Below, piece by piece: positions 552 to 56,504 of a stretch of 64,000 bases of DNA. The notes beneath the pieces are model-generated. The model was given only the letters and a program-made list of their open reading frames with translations, searched no databases and was not told the DNA's origin. The stretch comes from a virus. Taxonomy: Duplodnaviria; Caudoviricetes. Numbering within the stretch: position 1 is the first letter of the stretch; the number at the start of each line of letters is the position of its first letter. Where the stretch lies: positions 14,068-78,067 of IMG/VR virus record IMGVR_UViG_3300029288_000143. One strand, given 5' to 3'. Position numbers and translations under genes: made by a program.

Positions 552-3500
552 ATGAAAAATTTAGACTGGACTCCTGATACCGCGGAACAAGCCGGCGAGG
601 CCATCGGCATCGCTTGGGATACAGCGGAATTTACACCGGAAGATTTGCTTCAGGGTATGAATGTCGAGCTTGAGCACTGTTCAGACCCAGATACCGAAGT
701 AATTACTTGTAATTCTGAAGATACTGCTCGAATCGCTTGGGCACACCTTAAAGAATCGTCCGCATATTATCGCAATCTAGCTAAAATGGAACAAAGCTTT
801 AAAGAAGCCTCCGCCAGAACGGCCGCCGAGCTTGAACCCGAGGACTTGGCTAAAGCGCGCGGTCTAGAAAAAACTCGTCCTGTAGTTGACCCCTATGAAA
901 TTCGTGCGCGCGAAATTCTTAAAGAGCAAGGCAACGAGCAGCCGACAAAAAAAGAACTCGATGCAGCCTACGATTTAGCCTCACGTGAAGGGCGAAAGCC
1001 CGGCGCGGCACCGGCCCCAGAAGCCGCGTCCGAGCCAGTTAAAATCAAGCGCGGAAAAAAGGTCTATAAGGCGCCCAAGCAAAAAGCTGAAGAGCCCAAG
1101 CCCGACAAGCAAGAGTTCATCGCGGCTTTCCTGGCCGATTATGACCATAGGCGCAAGTCTTTTATCATTGATAGTCTGAATGCGCTACGCGCTGATAAAT
1201 CTATTTCTAAAGAGCAGCGCGTTCAAGTAGGTAAAACTATCGCGGCCATGCAGCCCGAAGCTCTGGCGGCGTTTGCTTATTCTAAAGCACTTGCTGATTT
1301 TGAGACCAAAGCAAAAACTAAGGCACAAGAATCGGCTTTTCACACCAAAGTAAAACAATACCTCAAAGCGCAGGGTATCGAAGACTATACGCAAGAGCAA
1401 TGGAGCGCGGCAGTTTCTGCGATCATCGCCCAAGAGCGCAAAGAAGCCAAAGAACTAGAGAACACCAATATAGAAAAAGGCACCAAGCATCTGCAAGAGA
1501 AGAAGGAAACTGTAGACCCAGAAGACGAACAAAATGATCAACAGGTTGCGGAGTTCACGCAGCCGCTAGTCACGTCTGCGGTCAGTCAAATCAAGTCTTT
1601 TGTCAAAAATCCAAAGGCGGAAGTCTGGACACAGTATCCTGGTGCAGATAAAACCCGGTGCTTCGTTTTAGATGTGTTGGTTCCTCGCGGTGAGCGCTAC
1701 GCTGCACGCGTAGGTAATTATCTCAATATACCGGCTGATGTTGTGCTCGGTGCAATAGAATCATCCGGCGCAGCGTATAAAGAATACATTACATACATCT
1801 CAGAGTTTAATACAGAACTCACCCAGGCTTTAACTGCAGCGTTTGAGGCTGAATTACCAAAGCTAGCACCGTACATAGATTTGGGTTTAGACAAAAAAGA
1901 CACAGCGGATGCCGCCGACGATAAAAAAGCTAAACCGAAGATTAAATCCGATGTCCCCACACTTGACACCAAGCTCATAGGCTGGGAGCTGGAGATATTT
2001 GATACTGTAGCGTTTGGGGAATCTATTTCTGACGCACCCGAAGGTTTGCTTTTGGTTGCTACAATCGAAGAATCGTATATCGCCCATTGGTCCGCTGTGG
2101 ACAAAGCGGCAATCAAAATTCTGCATACAGACATTCCTAAAACAGTTAAAAATCCAGGTAAGTGGCCTGATTGGGCAAAAACTGACAAATGGTTCGACGT
2201 CAGCACCGAGATGGCAGAACCCAGCGAAGCCGTGGTCGTGGCACAGCTTGCGAAGTACGCTGGCGGAAATGATTCCTACAGTCTAAGCGCTAGTTCGGCG
2301 CTCAAGCTCAAGCGTGATTCTGGTTCACCAGCGTACACTAAATATTTTGCTAAAAAGTTCGAAAATTTAAAGACTAAACCAGAAAAGACCGATACTCCGG
2401 TCATTGCGACAGAGATTTTCCGTGATTATTTAGAATTACCCGAATCAGATCCGCTACAGTCGCTAGCCGAAGCCATCGTTATGGAAAAAATGGGAGATAT
2501 AGCGGAGCATCAGACAGCCAGAATACAAGATCAAGGATATACAGATTGGATGGTCCTGGTATACGATTCAGTCAAGCAGACTGTGATTCCTGACGCGCCC
2601 AAAGGTCTATTGCTTTTAGGTATTATTTCCAAAAAAGATAAAGAACAGCACACTCAGGCGTTGGCACGACGCAAAGCCATTATCAATAGTGCGCAGGCTA
2701 CAGGGGCACAGCAGCTTGAACTTTTTGGGCCCAATGCGGGGCGCGGTGAAGGCCAAGGTGTGGCTGAGTTTACCAAAAAGGCCGAGGCTGAACTAGGACT
2801 TTCCGAGGATGAAGCCGATCTATGGCGCCAGTATTTCATTGTATCGTTGAAGCAAACTCAGCACACTCACGTGAAACCTATGCCGCGCAAACCAAAAAAA
2901 TTCAAAACTGAAACAGGCAAGCAAGTGACTATGAAGCCCGACGAATCTGAATTCGCTGAAGATATTTCACAAATTGGTAAATCGGACGTCGAAACCTACG
3001 ACCAGCGTTACAGCAGCGTGAAGACGGCGGTGGTTAAGGACTGCAAAGAAAAAGACCTGGATGATCGCCCCAAGGCCGAGCAAAAAGTTTGCCTCTACAG
3101 CGAAGAGGGCAAGCTGCTCGGCCGGCATCCCACGGAAGAATCGGCGGAAAAGCAACGCCGCAAGGTCGAGATGGAAAAGCACTCGGCCTACTTCAAAGTC
3201 AATCCTCTGGCTTTCGTTTCGGCAGACGAAATTTCTGATTACTACGAAGAGCAACATCTCCGGATGGCCTATGGGTTCTATGACGCAGACCAAGCGCAAA
3301 GGGCCCAAGCCAAAGTAACGGCAATCTGGAAAATGCGCAAAGCTCGAGTTGGCGCAGAGTTGACCTATACCAAGCAAAACGGCAACGAAGTAGAATTCAT
3401 CGGTACGGTGGACAGCGCGCGAACGTACCGAGGTACGGCTGGGCTGGATCCGGTAGCCATCACTTCCATCAATCCCTTTGAAGAATACGCCCAAGGCAAA

Positions 3501-13074: not shown

Positions 13075-15030
13075 ATGTCTAACGTGATCACCTTGCTCCG
13101 GGCCGAGGGTTCCCTGGTAGGGTATTTCGACTTTAGGTCCGGCACCATTCAGGATTGGTCGGGCCGGGGAAATCACGGGACGTTTACCTCAACACCCTAC
13201 TTCACTCGTGACGGTTTGGATTTTGGGACCGGAAACTCCCGGTACGTTAATGTTCCTGACAGTGACAACCTGCGATTGACGACCGGGTGTCTCGTGGGAT
13301 TCGCGGCCGGGGGTGGTATTAGGCAAGTAGCCAATGCGGCGTTTGTGTTCAAACGAGCCGCAACAATTGAATATAGCCTTAATTTAACTGCATTGGCTAT
13401 CGTCACCGACGGCACGGTTGGAACGAATATCACCTATACGCTTCCTTCCAATACCAAATACGTTGCGGCCAACATCACCAACGGCGCTAAATCAAACTTC
13501 TATGTCAATGGTCTTTACATTGGTGACAGTTCCAGCAACCTGACGCTGACCCCCTCGAATCAGGCCGTGAGGCTGGGAAATTTCGTCGATACCGTGACCA
13601 AGGTATCGGCTGTCCTGATTATCAACCGACCCTTGACCGCCACAGAACATTCCGCGCTGTTCAGTGAGCTTTCGGCCGCCACTTGGCCTGCCCTGACCCG
13701 TTGCATCAGCTATGTCGACACAAAGCCCCGGGTTCCGGATACTGGATTAGTGGCGGCATGGGATTTCGGGGCCCTGCAGAACGGCAAGGTTGTGGATCTG
13801 ACGGGTCATGGTTATGACGCCACGGCCTTTGGTGTCGTGACGGAGCAGACCCCCTGGGGCCGCGGTGTCCGGGGCAACGGGACCAGCTCCTACCTGCAGA
13901 CCGGAAACGTCGACCTCAGCACCACCGATAAGGTCACGGTCGTGATGGTCGCGAAACCCCGAGATCTTGCTGTGTCGGCTGCAATGGTTGAGTTGTCGAC
14001 CGGTTTTCCATCAGCCACTGATGGTCTTGCCCTGTACGGTGGGTCCAGCAACGTGAACGCCGGTTTGCGTGGCAATACCGGAACTTGCCTTGCTTCTACT
14101 GCCGCCATGACCTCCGGTGTGCCGTTGATGATCGTGGGTGTATTTGATAAATCGCTGGCCACTAACGAGTGCACCGTTTACCTCAATGGATTTGATGCCA
14201 CGGCTACCCGGACCGACCTCAACAATACCAATTTGTTTGGAAACAAACCATTCTATTTCTTGGCCCGTGGAGGAGCCTCGCTGTTCTCGAATGCCTGGTT
14301 GAAAAGCTGTGCTGTCTACAACCGTGCCTTTACGGCCGCAGAAGTCCGGGCCACCTGGGATGCCAGCGGCCTGAAGTCTGCCGGCTGGTCCACAGACTTT
14401 GGGGTTCCCGTGAGTGTTGCGGCGCGGGGCGGAACCGCGGGCCAGCAACTCGAAACCACAGATTTCAAGTTCCTGACCTCGACACCTCGGTATAGTGTCG
14501 CGACATCGACTATTTCCGGCACGGTCGTCAAAACGATCTCGTGTTCGACCGCTGGTCCTTTGTTCCTGGGTTCTCCGTCCCTGGGCCAGACCCCCACAGA
14601 AGCAGCCTATGGTCAGTGGAGTTGTTGGTTCAATAAGTCGGCCGGTGGGGTAATCGATTGGATGCCGGTCGCCAGTGACAAGATTGCGCCGGCAACCGCC
14701 GGGAACAACGGCTACCTGCTCCGCATTGATGCCAGTGAAAAAGTTTGGTTCTATAAGAACAATGGCGTGACCTTGACGCAACTATTTGCCACGGGCAATG
14801 ACTACATCGTAGCATCGACTTGGTACGGCTTGAGATTGGCCCGCAGTTATGCTGGCGCCTGGACCTTGCAGATCATCGGCGGGGCTTTCACGGGCTGGAC
14901 CACTGTCGGAGGCGCCACCAACAACGACTATGTTGTGTCGGGTTACCAAATCTGGGATGTAGATTCGAGTGATTTGCTGAGTATCGGAAGTTGTTGCGGG
15001 AAATATCAGTACAGGAAATCAATAGCGTGA
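13075..15030 (+). CDS. LamG/concanavalin-like virion protein (about three domains; receptor binding or decoration)
   Basis: GYFDFRSGTIQDWSGRGNHG, LVAAWDF...VVDLTGHGYDA, TVYLNG, AVYNRAFTAAEV motifs. Confidence 0.8.
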   Translation: MSNVITLLRAEGSLVGYFDFRSGTIQDWSGRGNHGTFTSTPYFTRDGLDFGTGNSRYVNVPDSDNLRLTTGCLVGFAAGGGIRQVANAAFVFKRAATIEYSLNLTALAIVTDGTVGTNITYTLPSNTKYVAANITNGAKSNFYVNGLYIGDSSSNLTLTPSNQAVRLGNFVDTVTKVSAVLIINRPLTATEHSALFSELSAATWPALTRCISYVDTKPRVPDTGLVAAWDFGALQNGKVVDLTGHGYDATAFGVVTEQTPWGRGVRGNGTSSYLQTGNVDLSTTDKVTVVMVAKPRDLAVSAAMVELSTGFPSATDGLALYGGSSNVNAGLRGNTGTCLASTAAMTSGVPLMIVGVFDKSLATNECTVYLNGFDATATRTDLNNTNLFGNKPFYFLARGGASLFSNAWLKSCAVYNRAFTAAEVRATWDASGLKSAGWSTDFGVPVSVAARGGTAGQQLETTDFKFLTSTPRYSVATSTISGTVVKTISCSTAGPLFLGSPSLGQTPTEAAYGQWSCWFNKSAGGVIDWMPVASDKIAPATAGNNGYLLRIDASEKVWFYKNNGVTLTQLFATGNDYIVASTWYGLRLARSYAGAWTLQIIGGAFTGWTTVGGATNNDYVVSGYQIWDVDSSDLLSIGSCCGKYQYRKSIA

Positions 15031-51306: not shown

Positions 51307-52872
51307 ATGCAAAATCAAGAAAATGATCTCCTCGCTGCGCTTCAAACGCTAGATCTCGTTGAGCAGACTCAGGGGCGCAACGCCAAAAGCGATTTACTCA
51401 AGCAACAAGTCGACAATCTTTATATCCAGGATATCATGCGGTACGCCCTAGGCTCCTATCGCTATTTCGTTACTCCGCCTGATGACGTTGTATCGCATCC
51501 TAGTTTGTCTCTGGAGAAATCCTGGGTCGAATTCAGAACACTGCTCAAGCGCCTGCGCACCCGCGAGGTAACGGGGAACGCGGCGCTGGCGGAGGTCAGC
51601 GCGCTGCTTTCACAGTGTCCTGCCTCAGCCTTGAAGTGGTACACGAGAATTCTGAACCATGACCTCCGTATCGGCATCGGGCACGATGTCGCTAAAGCTC
51701 TTTGGGGAGATGAGTTCCTTCTGGGCAAAGAAGCCAAGACCGAGGATTGGAAGTTCACGGGATGCGCCCTGGCCAAGCCCTGGGCCGACGTCTGGTCCAA
51801 GGGTGCCCCGTACCCCTTGGGCGTAGAGCGCAAGCTCGATGGAGAGCGTGCTCTGGTGTTCATCTGGCCCGCGACGGGCAAGATGGTCGTGACGACACGA
51901 AACGCCAAGCGGCGTGAAGCCATCGAGGGCGTTGAGGCGTTTGGGCAGCAACTCATTGATTTGGCCCACGCGATGAACCCCGACGATCCCGATATGCCGA
52001 TGTTCTTCGACGGGGAGTTTCTGGCCAAGACGTGGAATGATACGTCGAGCCTAATTCGTAAAACCAAGAACTTCGACGCCGAGGCATTCATTCGCGATAT
52101 CCGGATGCTCATTTTCGATTGGGCCCCAACAGCGGACTACTGCGCTGGGCGTTTCGATATGCCCTGGCTGGAGCGTAAGATTCGGCTTCTATCCGCCGTG
52201 GGCTGCACCAGGGCGACTCCCGAGCCTGTAGAGTTCTCTGCCAACCTCACAGTTCTGGGACATGTCATCGCACACAACGACGAGGAGCTTCAGGCCGAGT
52301 ACAATGCGTGTCTTGACGCCGGGTTCGAGGGCATTGTTGCAAAGGTCATGACGGCGCCAGAGTTGTTCAAGCGTACGGCAAATAACGTCAAGCTCAAACC
52401 CACGGACACGCAGACCGTAACGATCACGGGCGCAGTGGCGGGGCAAGGCAAGCACGCTGCCGCATCGAGCGCGTTTATTTCTGCGGTATCTGGGGTGCTG
52501 AATCGGTACGGCAAAGCCCAGGGCACGGTACCGTACATGCGCTGGACCGTTGACGATGTCGATGCCGCCATGGCCGCGGTCAGGAAGGTCGTGGCCGACG
52601 ATACGGAACGCCGGCTTGAAGCCGAGGGCAATGTCATTACGCTGCGGACGGGAGCCCGGCTGGGGTATTTCACAGCTGTAACCCCGAATGGCGACGAAAT
52701 CCATGTTGGCGGCGGGTATACACATAAAACCGGACGCGATCAGCGCATGGATTTCTGGCTCCGGCGGGACGAACTCTTGGGCAAGAAAATCGATATCAAA
52801 GTCCAGCAGGACAAGGAGCAGGTTGGTGTAGGGCGTTTCAACCGGTTTAGCCGAATCAGGGACGATTTGTAA
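51307..52872 (+). CDS. ATP-dependent DNA ligase
   Basis: Helical N-terminal DNA-binding domain, ERKLDGERA (adenylation Lys), FFDGEF, FEGIVAK, VKLKP, C-terminal OB fold ending RFSRIRDD. Confidence 0.92.
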   Translation: MQNQENDLLAALQTLDLVEQTQGRNAKSDLLKQQVDNLYIQDIMRYALGSYRYFVTPPDDVVSHPSLSLEKSWVEFRTLLKRLRTREVTGNAALAEVSALLSQCPASALKWYTRILNHDLRIGIGHDVAKALWGDEFLLGKEAKTEDWKFTGCALAKPWADVWSKGAPYPLGVERKLDGERALVFIWPATGKMVVTTRNAKRREAIEGVEAFGQQLIDLAHAMNPDDPDMPMFFDGEFLAKTWNDTSSLIRKTKNFDAEAFIRDIRMLIFDWAPTADYCAGRFDMPWLERKIRLLSAVGCTRATPEPVEFSANLTVLGHVIAHNDEELQAEYNACLDAGFEGIVAKVMTAPELFKRTANNVKLKPTDTQTVTITGAVAGQGKHAAASSAFISAVSGVLNRYGKAQGTVPYMRWTVDDVDAAMAAVRKVVADDTERRLEAEGNVITLRTGARLGYFTAVTPNGDEIHVGGGYTHKTGRDQRMDFWLRRDELLGKKIDIKVQQDKEQVGVGRFNRFSRIRDDL

Positions 52873-53115: not shown

Positions 53116-53391
53116 ATGTCAAAATACGATCGACGCCAGAAAACTGAATCTATTTCTCTGTTTGACATTCTTTCCGCGGTTGACGCCAGCGTTGACACGG
53201 CGAAAACGGTCGCGGAGCTTAACTCGGATCTTAATTCAGATAAATATAAATTCACATCAGCAGAGCGTGCGGTACTAGCTACACTGCAGCACAAATGCGT
53301 TCTGATCGCAGAGCAGCACGGTGCATTTTTGGATATGGTTCTGCGGTCTATGGACGACGTAGAAGCCGAGGTCGAGAAAAGCGAGGACTAA
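53116..53391 (+). CDS. Hypothetical helical protein
   Basis: 91 aa; stop coupled to the next ATG. Confidence 0.6.
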   Translation: MSKYDRRQKTESISLFDILSAVDASVDTAKTVAELNSDLNSDKYKFTSAERAVLATLQHKCVLIAEQHGAFLDMVLRSMDDVEAEVEKSED

Positions 53392-53786
53392 TGCGGCGCA
53401 AAAAGGAAAAGCAGGAACTCCCGAAACGTACTGCCCGGGGTAATGAACGCCGCGAGTTGGAGGGCTATGTTGGCGTCGACGAATACTTTGATGACGACCC
53501 GCGTTCTATCGACGAGTACTGCGCCAGGATCCACTTAGCCTGCGAAGACGCACAGGCCTGCTGGCTCGCTCGGCATCCAGGCTGTGAAATCGAGCCAGGT
53601 ACATTTTGGCTTAGACTCATGGAACAAGGCGTCTATGACCAAACCCGCCTGTACGGCGTTTTCTATTACTGGGAGGCAGAAGAAGACGCCGACGAGTACG
53701 CAGAGACCCTGGCAGCCGCCCAGGCGACCAAAGCCGCACAAGAGCGCGAGCTGTACTTGCAGCTAAAAGCAAAGTTTGAACCATGA
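53391..53786 (+). CDS. Hypothetical protein
   Basis: TAATG coupling; MRRKKEKQELP... Confidence 0.6.
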   Translation: MRRKKEKQELPKRTARGNERRELEGYVGVDEYFDDDPRSIDEYCARIHLACEDAQACWLARHPGCEIEPGTFWLRLMEQGVYDQTRLYGVFYYWEAEEDADEYAETLAAAQATKAAQERELYLQLKAKFEP

Positions 53787-53798
53787 CCAAAGTTCAAT

Positions 53799-55310
53799 TT
53801 GAGTCAACCACCCCTCCTACATGGAGAGACGCGAAAAGGTCTCTGGTTGACTAGGGAACATCGAAAGGTGTAGCAGTTGGTCGAGAGAAATACATACACA
53901 CCCGTGGACGCTCCTCAAATCTACGGCTCTGTGGATCTGTCGTTAAAAAGCTCAAGGGGTAGAGCTGGTGCGCAGATCTTAAAAACCTCTTCCAACAATC
54001 CCGATGAGGCTCTCACTTCCCTTTCGAGGGAAGGGCAGGACTTGAGAGTACCTGCCGTTTATGTTCTTAATCAACGCGGCGAGCCATTAATGCCCACAAC
54101 GCCAAGGAAAGCACGAATGCTTCTCCGGGAAGGAAAGGCCAAGGTAAAGACTAGAACTCCGTTTGTAATTCAATTGCTTGTTCCAACCGGAGAAACCAAA
54201 CGGCCCATCGTTTTGGGAGTAGACGCTGGATACCTCCACGTTGGCCTGTCGGCCGTAACGGAAAATAAAGAAGTATACGCCGCGGAAATCACGCTTAGGT
54301 CTGATATTGTAGCCTTAATTTCGACTCGTAAAATGTATCGACAAACACGAAGAAGTAGAAAAACCTGGTACAGACAGCCGAGATGGTTGAATCGAGTAAA
54401 AAGCAAACCCAAAGGCTGGCTAGCTCCGTCAATTCAGCACAAGCTCAATAGCCATGTAAAACTGGTCGAGCGCGTTAAACGAATTCTTCCCATTACCTCA
54501 GTAATAGTGGAAATAGCTGCTTTTGACATTCAGAAAATCAAAAATCCAGATATACAGGGAGTAGAGTACCAAGAAGGTGTGCAAAAAGGTTTTACAAACG
54601 TGCGAGAATATGTGCTGTACAGAGATGGACATAAATGCCAAGCGTGCAAAGGAAAATCCAAAGACAAAATTTTGAAAGTAGTGTTGAACGCCCACCACAT
54701 AGAGTCTAGAAAAACAGGCGGAAATCGACCTGATAATCTCGTTACACTCTGTGCTGAGTGTCATAAGCTTTACCATAACGGTACCGTAAACATTAAAACT
54801 AAACCCAGCAAAAGTTTCAAAGCCGAAGCATTCATGACGATGGTGTGGCGACGATTGGTTGAACTATTAGGTGCCGCAATCCGATATGGCTACGAAACCA
54901 AACAAGCTAGAGCAGACGCTGGACTTAACAAAAGTCATGTTAATGACGCTTTTGTCGTCGCGGGCGGATGCTACCAGAACAGAACAGTTCCATTTTTAGT
55001 AAAACAAGTTAGGAAACAGAACCGAAAACTTTACAATGGACCACACTCCGGTCGGCGCAGCACCGCTGCTCGATTTGTTCGTGGGTTCCAACGATACGAT
55101 AAAGTCCTGTACAAAGGAGTGGAATGTTTTGTGTTTGGAAGAAGAACCAACGGTTATTTCGACGTCCGAGATCTATACGGTGCTAGAATACATGACGGCG
55201 CAAAAGCCAAGGACTGTGTTTTGCTGGAAACAGCAAGCACTTTATTAACCTGTACCCTAAGAGGTGGCACTCCCCTGCCTAAAGGCAGAGGTCTCCATGC
55301 CGAAGCCCAA
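53799..55310 (+). mobile_element. Non-autonomous IS200/IS605-family IscB (OMEGA) element
   Basis: omega-RNA-like leader starting GTCAACCACCCC, iscB ORF, terminal hairpin CCCCTGCCTAAAGGCAGAGG, then ATGAA flank; no tnpA in window; left boundary uncertain (53799-53803). Confidence 0.85.
53803..54041 (+). ncRNA. omega-RNA / HEARO RNA scaffold
   Basis: GTCAACC...GGTTGAC pairing, TACACACC..GGACGCTCCTC..GCTCTG core and CTTCCCTTTCGAGGGAAG hairpin directly upstream of iscB. Confidence 0.8.
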
Positions 55311-55799
55311 ATGAAAATCAGAACTGGTTTTGTCAGCAATTCGAGTAGTTCTAGCTTTGTCGTGCAAATCCGGCAGAGTCCGTGGGAAAAATCCGAGCCC
55401 AAATTGTTGCTTTCGCCGGAGCAACTCGCATGGCTAGAGTCTCAAGGATTTCGGTACTGTGCGCACACGTATCCCTCGCGAGTTGAGGAAACTGGGATTC
55501 TGGAAATGTACCCTGGCGCCGAAACGCCTGAAGCAGCAGAAAATATGTGGCTGTCGGTGATTTGTAACCAAGACGAAGTCATCGACGGTTTGGTCCGGCA
55601 GGGCATTCCATTTTGTGCGTCATGCCACTACGGACACGAGACTGTGGTTTGGCGCGCTGGCGATAAGCGCGTTTATGCATTGCCAAATTTAGGGCACGAA
55701 TACGAAACATACCAAGAGGAGAAACTTTTCAAAGCTAAAGTCAAAGTAGCATCACAAACCGTAGCAAGCATCAAGAAAAACGGGTGTAATCTCGTTTAG
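54042..55799 (+). CDS. iscB: IscB RNA-guided nuclease (423 aa) read through in frame into a 162-aa phage protein
   Basis: TTG start; VYVLNQRGEPLMPT (PLMP), LGVDAG (RuvC-I), RKMYRQTRRSRK (bridge helix), VIVEI (RuvC-II), HHIESRKTGGNRPDNLVTLCAECH (HNH), KSHVNDA (RuvC-III); no stop before ATG 55311. Confidence 0.9.
   Translation: MRVPAVYVLNQRGEPLMPTTPRKARMLLREGKAKVKTRTPFVIQLLVPTGETKRPIVLGVDAGYLHVGLSAVTENKEVYAAEITLRSDIVALISTRKMYRQTRRSRKTWYRQPRWLNRVKSKPKGWLAPSIQHKLNSHVKLVERVKRILPITSVIVEIAAFDIQKIKNPDIQGVEYQEGVQKGFTNVREYVLYRDGHKCQACKGKSKDKILKVVLNAHHIESRKTGGNRPDNLVTLCAECHKLYHNGTVNIKTKPSKSFKAEAFMTMVWRRLVELLGAAIRYGYETKQARADAGLNKSHVNDAFVVAGGCYQNRTVPFLVKQVRKQNRKLYNGPHSGRRSTAARFVRGFQRYDKVLYKGVECFVFGRRTNGYFDVRDLYGARIHDGAKAKDCVLLETASTLLTCTLRGGTPLPKGRGLHAEAQMKIRTGFVSNSSSSSFVVQIRQSPWEKSEPKLLLSPEQLAWLESQGFRYCAHTYPSRVEETGILEMYPGAETPEAAENMWLSVICNQDEVIDGLVRQGIPFCASCHYGHETVVWRAGDKRVYALPNLGHEYETYQEEKLFKAKVKVASQTVASIKKNGCNLV
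55311..55799 (+). CDS. MKIRTGFVSNSSSSSF-family protein 1 (now the C-terminus of the IscB ORF)
   Basis: Same N-terminal signature as the next two genes; lacks its own SD. Confidence 0.75.
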   Translation: MKIRTGFVSNSSSSSFVVQIRQSPWEKSEPKLLLSPEQLAWLESQGFRYCAHTYPSRVEETGILEMYPGAETPEAAENMWLSVICNQDEVIDGLVRQGIPFCASCHYGHETVVWRAGDKRVYALPNLGHEYETYQEEKLFKAKVKVASQTVASIKKNGCNLV

Positions 55800-55807
55800 G
55801 AGGAAAC

Positions 55808-56176
55808 ATGAAGATCAGAACCGGGTTCGTAAGTAATTCCAGCAGCTCCAGCTTTTTGATCTGGGGCATCACAGTAGACACGTCGGAGTTTCAGAAAGAA
55901 ATTCCCGTAAGAGATGAAGACGGGGAAGACTGCGAGGAAGAGAGCCCGTACGATGTCGCGGAGCGGCTTGAGTCCGAATACGGTGACATCGTGCGGTTTG
56001 CTTATGAAAACGACATCCTATATCTCGGTCGGTGCCCTTCAACTTGCGGCCTAGACGAGACCATGCGGAAGTTCCAGCAGCGCGTGGAAACCGAGGTGAA
56101 AGCCATGGCTGAGAAAGAAGGCGTAGCTCTGGGAGACGTGGAATTCGGGTGGCTCGAGGAAGCCTGGCACGACTGA
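55808..56176 (+). CDS. MKIRTGFVSNSSSSSF-family protein 2
   Basis: AGGAGG SD; acidic. Confidence 0.85.
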   Translation: MKIRTGFVSNSSSSSFLIWGITVDTSEFQKEIPVRDEDGEDCEEESPYDVAERLESEYGDIVRFAYENDILYLGRCPSTCGLDETMRKFQQRVETEVKAMAEKEGVALGDVEFGWLEEAWHD

Positions 56177-56186
56177 GGAGGACAAA

Positions 56187-56504
56187 ATGAAAATCAGAAC
56201 CGGTTTTGTAAGTAACTCGAGTAGTTCAAGCTTTTTGATTTGGGGCACCTTTGTCGAGGTAGACAAATTCGGCGAGGAATTCGATCGCGATGAAGTCGAA
56301 GGCGACATCGTGCACTCCGCCGGGCCCGACGACGACTATTACGTTTACGTCGGACGTGTGCCTAAAGAGTGTCGTGATGACGAAACCATGGGGCAATTCA
56401 AAGCCCGCGTCGAGACCGACGCCAGAGCGTTCCTGGCTGAGCAAAAAGTCGACGCGACAAATCTGAAATTTGGATGGCATTCGGCCGCGTGGTACGACGG
56501 ATAG
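56187..56504 (+). CDS. MKIRTGFVSNSSSSSF-family protein 3 (close paralogue of protein 2)
   Basis: GAGGAGG SD; shares DETMxxF..RVET...FGW....W.D. Confidence 0.85.
   Translation: MKIRTGFVSNSSSSSFLIWGTFVEVDKFGEEFDRDEVEGDIVHSAGPDDDYYVYVGRVPKECRDDETMGQFKARVETDARAFLAEQKVDATNLKFGWHSAAWYDG

Follow-up and report, generated by a model that had tools for sequence, protein, structure and literature searches.

Several properties of IscB elements have been established in earlier work. For some ISC transposons, insertion at N|ATGA without duplication of the target has been demonstrated from empty sites, and other ISC families insert at GT|GG or GT|GA (Kapitonov et al. 2016, PMC4810608). In the case of the ISGst element of Geobacillus stearothermophilus, which encodes GstIscB, the omega-RNA scaffold is derived from the transposon's right end and the guide from the sequence outside that end, and the nuclease needs the target-adjacent motif (TAM) TTCAT 5' of the left end, i. 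e. ATGAA in the orientation of iscB (Meers et al. 2023, 10.1101/2023.03.14.532601). The same study established that co-orientation with the upstream gene is the norm for iscB elements, and that a nearby tnpA is found with only about 1.5% of the iscB genes, so that about 98% lack one. Here, we have analysed an IscB/omega-RNA element located in a stretch of 64,000 nucleotides, referred to as the window, of the viral record IMGVR_UViG_3300029288_000143 (positions 14,068 to 78,067). The non-autonomous element has a size of 1,508 bp (window 53803-55310) and belongs, within the IS200/IS605 superfamily, to the ISC2 group. As an IscB transposon it is an ordinary member of a known family at the usual kind of site, and the target motif, the origin of the guide and the homing role have already been published. 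The new feature is the in-frame read-through of its iscB gene into the downstream gene. We consider it probable that a single-copy, non-autonomous ISC2/IscB transposon has been inserted without duplication 5' of an ATGA(A) start codon, and that the missing stop codon of iscB is an accident.

Like the GstIscB element (10.1101/2023.03.14.532601), the element of the window is a non-autonomous element of the IS605 type that has a HEARO-type omega-RNA upstream of its iscB gene, takes the guide from the outside flank and has the same orientation as the gene upstream of it. The tested TAM, TTCAT, gives as its reverse complement the ATGAA found directly after the element of the window. However, the GstIscB element resides on a bacterial chromosome with TnpA acting in trans, whereas the element studied here lies in a phage-like context, its open reading frame (ORF) has no stop, and there is no TnpA in the genome bin to which its contig was assigned. 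Two statements of the original prediction agree with this literature: ATGA/ATGAA is a published target, with the TAM tested for GstIscB, and the guide originates from the flank 5' of the scaffold (Meers et al. 2023). With the ISC2 transposons that insert at N|ATGA (PMC4810608), the element shares the 5'-GTCA terminus, the subterminal hairpins, what appears to be insertion just upstream of ATGA without duplication, and an IscB with an HNH insert. These transposons of cyanobacteria and proteobacteria were defined by empty sites, whereas the window has to be judged from occupied sites. The structurally characterized OgeuIscB-omega-RNA complex (PDB 7XHT, 7UTN and 8CSZ) has the same domain order and catalytic residues as the IscB of the window (E 1e-41 over two stretches). 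Nevertheless, OgeuIscB is a distant relative with 496 amino acids and a normal stop. Its TAM is NWRRNA and not ATGAA.

The closest natural relative is the IscB P0002 from a metagenome-assembled genome (MAG) of the Patescibacteria group (GCA_041651265.1, locus L007), with 80-81% identity for the protein and 88% for the scaffold. The L007 element shares its ends and its ATGAA flank with the element of the window, and it is also located on an ATG. It differs from the latter in that iscB stops at the TGA of ATGA and the end hairpin is degraded, and the two insertion sites are unrelated. The contig that carries L007 also encodes a TnpB of the IS605 type (684-1901, minus strand), about 4 kb from this IscB.

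Both partners of the predicted ribonucleoprotein have been preserved. The original prediction of an intact IscB/omega-RNA element is supported by a match to the full HEARO covariance model, by the RRXRR and HNH domains, and by catalytic residues that are all kept; indeed, every sequence feature on which it was based was found again at its place. The Rfam model RF02033 matches the plus strand at 53803-54016 with 100.1 bits (gathering score 83, E 1e-20) and is covered in full from model position 1 to 211. An extra hairpin follows at 54017-34, and it shows compensatory paired changes as compared to L007. The protein matches the Pfam models RRXRR (2.6e-62) and HNH (3e-7) and consists of the PLMP/RRXRR region, a split RuvC domain, the HNH domain, the TAM-interacting domain and a variable tail of about 20 amino acids without a stop codon. 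All residues that are invariant in an alignment of 15 IscB sequences are present, among them D61, E157, H218/H219, N232, H241, H299, D302 and four cysteines. They include Asp, Glu and His..Asp of the RuvC domain, His/Asn/His of the HNH domain and the four zinc-binding Cys. The catalytic residues also align to those of OgeuIscB and related PDB chains. The ratio of non-synonymous to synonymous substitution rates (dN/dS) is 0.11 for IscB and its nearest relative at L007 (81% identical), and the scaffold is better conserved between the two elements than the coding sequence (88% vs. 78% identity). We can therefore conclude that the nuclease and the RNA were under selection in the past.

We have taken TTG 54042 as the start of IscB because it keeps the conserved VYVLN strand and follows a purine-rich stretch located 6 nt upstream. 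This start is uncertain: two public gene calls of the contig from different sources yield proteins of 560 and 622 amino acids. Further upstream, the iscB frame is free of stops across the 3' half of the omega-RNA as well (window 53877-54041), as it is in the corresponding region of P0002-P0011, P0019 and P0062. The conceptual translation of this stretch, 'LKT.SN.PDE.LT', is conserved in the window and in many relatives.

The ends of the element were deduced from a three-way DNA alignment with the loci of the closest IscBs, P0002 (L007) and P0003 (64% identity, L008), both of which occupy unrelated insertion sites. The homology starts exactly at GTCAAC (window 53803) and ends at window 55310. 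Counted from the first base of the CCTAAAGG hairpin loop, the end is at a distance of 33 nt, and this spacing is identical in all three loci. In each of these three independent insertions, ATGAA comes directly after the element, and the sequence beyond it is unrelated. In the window, as had been proposed, this ATGAA is the start of the first MKIRTGF gene. No flanking target duplication was seen at the element. The subterminal hairpin has 8 bp including one G-T pair on the minus strand, which is the strand that TnpA would use, and it is located 19 nt from the end. L008 has it at the same position and distance, and the same placement with a similar spacing (17-23 nt, mostly 18-19) is seen in about 45 relatives from viral contigs.

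The original prediction had missed one caveat: occupied sites alone cannot separate insertion at N|ATGA from insertion at GT|GA. Since occupied sites fit both models alike, both element boundaries carry an ambiguity of 2 nt. If insertion had taken place at GT|GA, the element would extend from 53805 to 55312 (5'-CA...AT-3'), an ancestral GTG start would have been turned into ATG by the last two bases of the element, and the guide and the TAM would be displaced by 2 nt. The empty allele would then read ...TTTGA GTGAAAATC, whereas ...TTTGA ATGAAAATC is expected for N|ATGA. This model finds a precedent in the insertion at GT|GG or GT|GA that has been reported for several ISC2 families whose junctions, 5'-GTCA and AT|GR-3', are the same (PMC4810608). 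Still, we regard it as unlikely and favour N|ATGA, with the 2-nt ambiguity remaining, for three reasons: the TAM tested for GstIscB, TTCAT, contains the AT (Meers et al. 2023); the G and the T at 53803-4 pair inside the conserved P1 stem of the scaffold; and all eight paralogues of the downstream gene in this genome start with ATG. Moreover, empty sites have proved N|ATGA for other ISC families (PMC4810608). A search for orthologues of the genes downstream of two viral elements, which bears on an ancestral ATG or GTG, returned only self-hits or relatives with 36-39% identity.

Landing on start codons is common among the viral relatives of the element. We surveyed 80 IscB loci from viral contigs (67 of them non-redundant) by taking the best-scored hairpin after the IscB core, chosen blind to what follows. 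This hairpin is followed by ATG at a distance of 15-23 nt in 43 of the 67 loci, with a background of 18%, and among these 43 the motif is ATGA in 33 and ATGAA in 25 cases. Where the ATG test failed, this was mostly due to another hairpin with a higher score. The junction ATG opens an ORF of at least 50 codons in 29 of 46 cases (63%), whereas the share is 27% among the other ATGA sites that these loci have on the same strand (binomial p about 5e-7, with loci that are not fully independent). Several of these ORFs begin with recognizable native N-termini, e. g. of AbrB-, IMPDH-, SecY- and NifS-like proteins. These data bear out the idea put forward in the original prediction that an ATGAA-targeting element lands on ATG starts, since gene starts are hit far above chance.

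The genes downstream of the approximately 45 viral IscB junctions (L008-L088) mostly have no ribosome-binding site. It is possible that their translation is explained by coupling to the nearby IscB stop, which is usually located within 34 nt of the ATG. The idea that the end of the element supplies a replacement Shine-Dalgarno sequence was rejected, as a motif of this kind was present in 6 of 47 ends with a background of 14%. At two loci on IMG/VR contigs of 206-235 kb (L060 and L061), the ATG junction was not found 3' of IscB. Both have a stretch resembling a tRNA T-arm about 70 nt past the end hairpin and may represent a different target type.

The read-through sets the element of the window apart from all these relatives. 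As the original prediction had reported, IscB has no stop: the frame is open from 53877 to 55799 with ATG 55311 in phase, and it continues for 162 amino acids. The predicted fusion comprises 585 codons and consists of IscB, a linker of about 20 amino acids and the 162-amino acid protein. Among 47 elements from viral contigs, 22 IscBs have their stop, a TAA within or next to the hairpin loop, at position -30 to -34 relative to the junction, whereas 10 stop further upstream, several just before the junction, and 5 at the TGA of ATGA; the window is the only one of the 47 with read-through. Similarly, the C-terminal tail past the conserved core has 1-37 amino acids in the 120 closest IscB clusters as compared to 182 amino acids here. 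Translation ends at the loop TAA in L008 and at the TGA of ATGA in L007, which leaves the third frame for the window. Between these loci, the tails differ by short indels in the variable stretch in front of the hairpin, and the gain or loss of a single base in the tail of the window would restore a normal stop. Judged from the sequence, the fusion is thus most likely an incidental accident of frame. The original prediction had further assumed that landing on ATGAA can create fusions; this is true for one in-frame case, the window itself, and no other case occurs among the 47 viral relatives.

The gene to which IscB is joined encodes a member of a viral protein family. A word search identified 40 relatives of the 162-amino acid protein (best identity, 53%), and a profile of this form retrieved 8,389 proteins with an E limit of 0.001 and, with a limit of 1e-30, 227 cluster representatives. 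The viral share of the nearest Atlas clusters amounts to 83-95%. The family has no match to a Pfam model, and Foldseek with the partner model gave no match to PDB or BFVD with an E value of 0.001 or less. The best VIA-align match (Z 4.6) corresponds to a generic ferredoxin-like fold and is not convincing. AlphaFold predicts the partner alone with a mean confidence (pLDDT) of 85, the residues 1-10 being of low confidence. The best 150 family matches are all stand-alone proteins of 125-219 amino acids, and almost all of them match from residue 1, so that ATG 55311 can be regarded as the native start. Eight ORFs in the bin begin with the 16-amino acid motif MK[IV]R.GFVSNSSSSSF and differ in their remaining sequences: three in the window (55311-56504), four on contig 4 of G000 (17.6-21.5 kb; L003-L006) and one on contig 9 near 11183. 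The motif is always located at residue 1, and it is conserved at the level of the protein since its codons differ synonymously among the eight ORFs.

These findings have to be considered when asking whether the fusion is functional, i. e. whether IscB has gained a new C-terminal domain or the read-through serves as the expression route of the downstream protein, and is kept by selection. In this case, the 585-codon open frame with both parts intact, the purifying selection on IscB, the variable and probably flexible tail as a linker, and a partner that is confidently predicted to fold alone would all find an explanation. We nevertheless think that a selected fusion is rather improbable: it is unique among the 47 viral relatives and the 120 closest IscBs, none of the best 150 members of the partner family is fused, with almost all matching from residue 1, the motif is conserved as protein at a free N-terminus in the eight paralogues, and a frame change of 1 nt is enough to explain the read-through. 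For the same reasons, the notion of a 'new appended domain' that the original prediction had raised is not supported as an evolved architecture.

The accident would leave the downstream gene in an unusual situation. As previously recognized, the first paralogue has no Shine-Dalgarno sequence of its own (none within 15 nt of the ATG), and the second and the third have GGAGGA. Having lost any separate ribosome-binding site, the gene is probably expressed only as part of the fusion or very weakly, and the two intact neighbouring paralogues may make a poor expression of the partner tolerable. A mini-ORF at 55297-55314 with five codons (ATG CCG AAG CCC AAA TGA) begins at a distance of 5 nt from the GAGG that precedes it in the 3' arm of the hairpin. 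Its TGA overlaps ATG 55311 and could allow weak termination-reinitiation at the downstream gene. The mini-ORF is not conserved in L007 or L008.

It may be asked whether the read-through exists at all. The gain or loss of one base upstream of the hairpin would restore either of the normal stops, the loop TAA or the TGA of ATGA, and the two database copies of the contig (78,120 and 78,067 bp) are probably derived from the same assembly. An error of the assembly or of the consensus, with a true tail that is one base longer or shorter, would therefore produce what we see. We give this explanation little weight, as homopolymers in the region are short, with no run longer than four C, the same ORF is present in both records, and the tail length differs naturally among the relatives.

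The flank of the element suggests how it might be maintained. The ORF upstream of the element is co-oriented with it and is likely to be the source of a read-through transcript that would give the guide plus the scaffold. Its product of up to 163 amino acids has no Pfam match, and searches of IMG/VR, JGI metagenomes and GTDB genomes returned no relatives. Based on the published work, transcription from this gene would result in an omega-RNA that begins with the guide, predicted to have 16 nt (53787-53802), and these 16 nt exactly span the gap between the stop codon of the upstream ORF and the element. IscB together with this omega-RNA would cut copies of the locus without the element, in which the guide match is followed by ATGAA, and the break would be repaired from the occupied copy. 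As a result, the element would be kept in place after excision, or it would spread to co-infecting relatives. At its own flank, the place of the TAM is occupied by the scaffold, and self-cleavage is therefore not expected. Homing against the empty alleles of co-infecting relatives would be a plausible role.

The alternative to a transposon that maintains itself by homing would be an immobile element that is no longer an active transposon and has been co-opted by its host element, e. g. to attack competing phages or for regulation. The bin (1.59 Mb) contains one IscB and has no match to the Y1 transposase (PF01797), and the guide is unique in the bin at up to two mismatches, its sole match being its own flank. 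The single copy, the absence of TnpA from the bin, the conserved IscB and omega-RNA and the guide without another match in the bin would all be in agreement with co-option. However, the lack of a nearby tnpA is the normal state for about 98% of the iscB genes (Meers et al. 2023), and it does not exclude membership in the ISC2/IscB group since the non-autonomous majority normally has no tnpA nearby. Moreover, the terminal hairpin and its spacing are intact, and a guide that equals the own flank is a trait of homing elements. Co-option thus seems hardly probable to us, and we keep to the non-autonomous transposon.

Several observations weigh against the interpretation as an ordinary transposon with an accidentally missing stop. 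First, the folding energy of the end hairpin is unremarkable (z -0.2 to -0.4), and the support for the hairpin is therefore its conserved place. Second, an empty-site allele was not found in IMG/VR, JGI metagenomes, GTDB genomes, or metagenome and viral contigs, and the boundaries consequently rest on the comparison of occupied sites. The predicted 22-nt empty junction is absent from the metagenome and viral contigs, the upstream 163-amino acid protein and the 162-amino acid partner have no close relatives in IMG/VR, and the partner gene is absent from 40 relatives of the host genome. The closest homologues of the partner (L089-L091, 53% identity) have a different upstream gene and hence no synteny. 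Third, the predicted empty site would lack a Shine-Dalgarno sequence, unlike the paralogues. Fourth, tail frames that drift freely would be expected to give read-through in about one third of the elements, and the one case in 47 suggests that read-through is normally selected against. Its survival here needs an explanation, such as a recent origin, redundancy or tolerance. Finally, the read-through has been deduced from the assembly sequence.

Features of the element and its flanks (window coordinates)
Feature	Position	Strand	Remarks
Upstream ORF	53295..53786	+	Up to 163 aa; from the ORF list; no known family
Predicted omega-RNA guide, 16 nt	53787..53802	+	Flank directly 5' of the scaffold; guide length deduced
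omega-RNA scaffold (HEARO)	53803..54041	+	Transposon right end in TnpA orientation; Rfam RF02033
IscB coding part	54042..55310	+	423 codons if the start is TTG 54042
Subterminal hairpin	55272..55291	.	TAAA loop; left-end hairpin in TnpA orientation
Terminal spacer, 19 nt	55292..55310	+	Final bases of the element; end 55312 under the GT|GA model
ATGAA	55311..55315	+	Transposon target and predicted TAM; start codon and first 2 bases of codon 2 of the downstream gene
First MKIRTGFVSNSSSSSF paralogue	55311..55799	+	162 aa plus stop; in frame with IscB; own Shine-Dalgarno absent
Second paralogue	55808..56176	+	122 aa; own GGAGGA ribosome-binding site
Third paralogue	56187..56504	+	105 aa; own GGAGGA ribosome-binding site

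The 78-kb contig has been binned with a small-genome (Patescibacteria-like) MAG. Since the bin of 1.59 Mb is larger than the genomes of its relatives (0.7-1.4 Mb), the contig may be a phage that was binned along with it. Its genes are mostly orphans on one strand and include a PHROG-type ATP-dependent DNA ligase (51307-52872; 2.5e-55), an RNA ligase and a glycoside hydrolase. Terminase_6N, Phage_sheath_1 and Phage_capsid had no match above the cut-off in the bin, and the nine largest ORFs of C6:1-14067 had no Pfam match. The contig is likely a phage, an assignment that rests on gene content only, with no hallmark gene recognized. Several free-standing homing endonucleases of the HNH type and of the GIY-YIG type with NUMOD3 are encoded on the contig (window 7750-8952 and other ORFs), and the genome is rich in selfish nucleases.

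For the family, our survey of about 45 viral relatives describes a clade that occupies gene start codons at about twice the rate expected by chance and brings no ribosome-binding site, so that the translation of the downstream genes calls for an explanation. Docking at ATG-A has a further consequence: one of the three tail frames automatically gives an in-frame chimera with the downstream gene. If the fusion were selected after all, the window would encode a working RNA-guided nuclease with a 162-amino acid domain from an uncharacterized viral family, or the read-through would be the only expression route of this gene, and such docking would be a way in which new IscB/Cas9-like domain architectures could arise in nature. 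As the single exception found, the element of the window is a natural test case for the tolerance of IscB towards C-terminal cargo.

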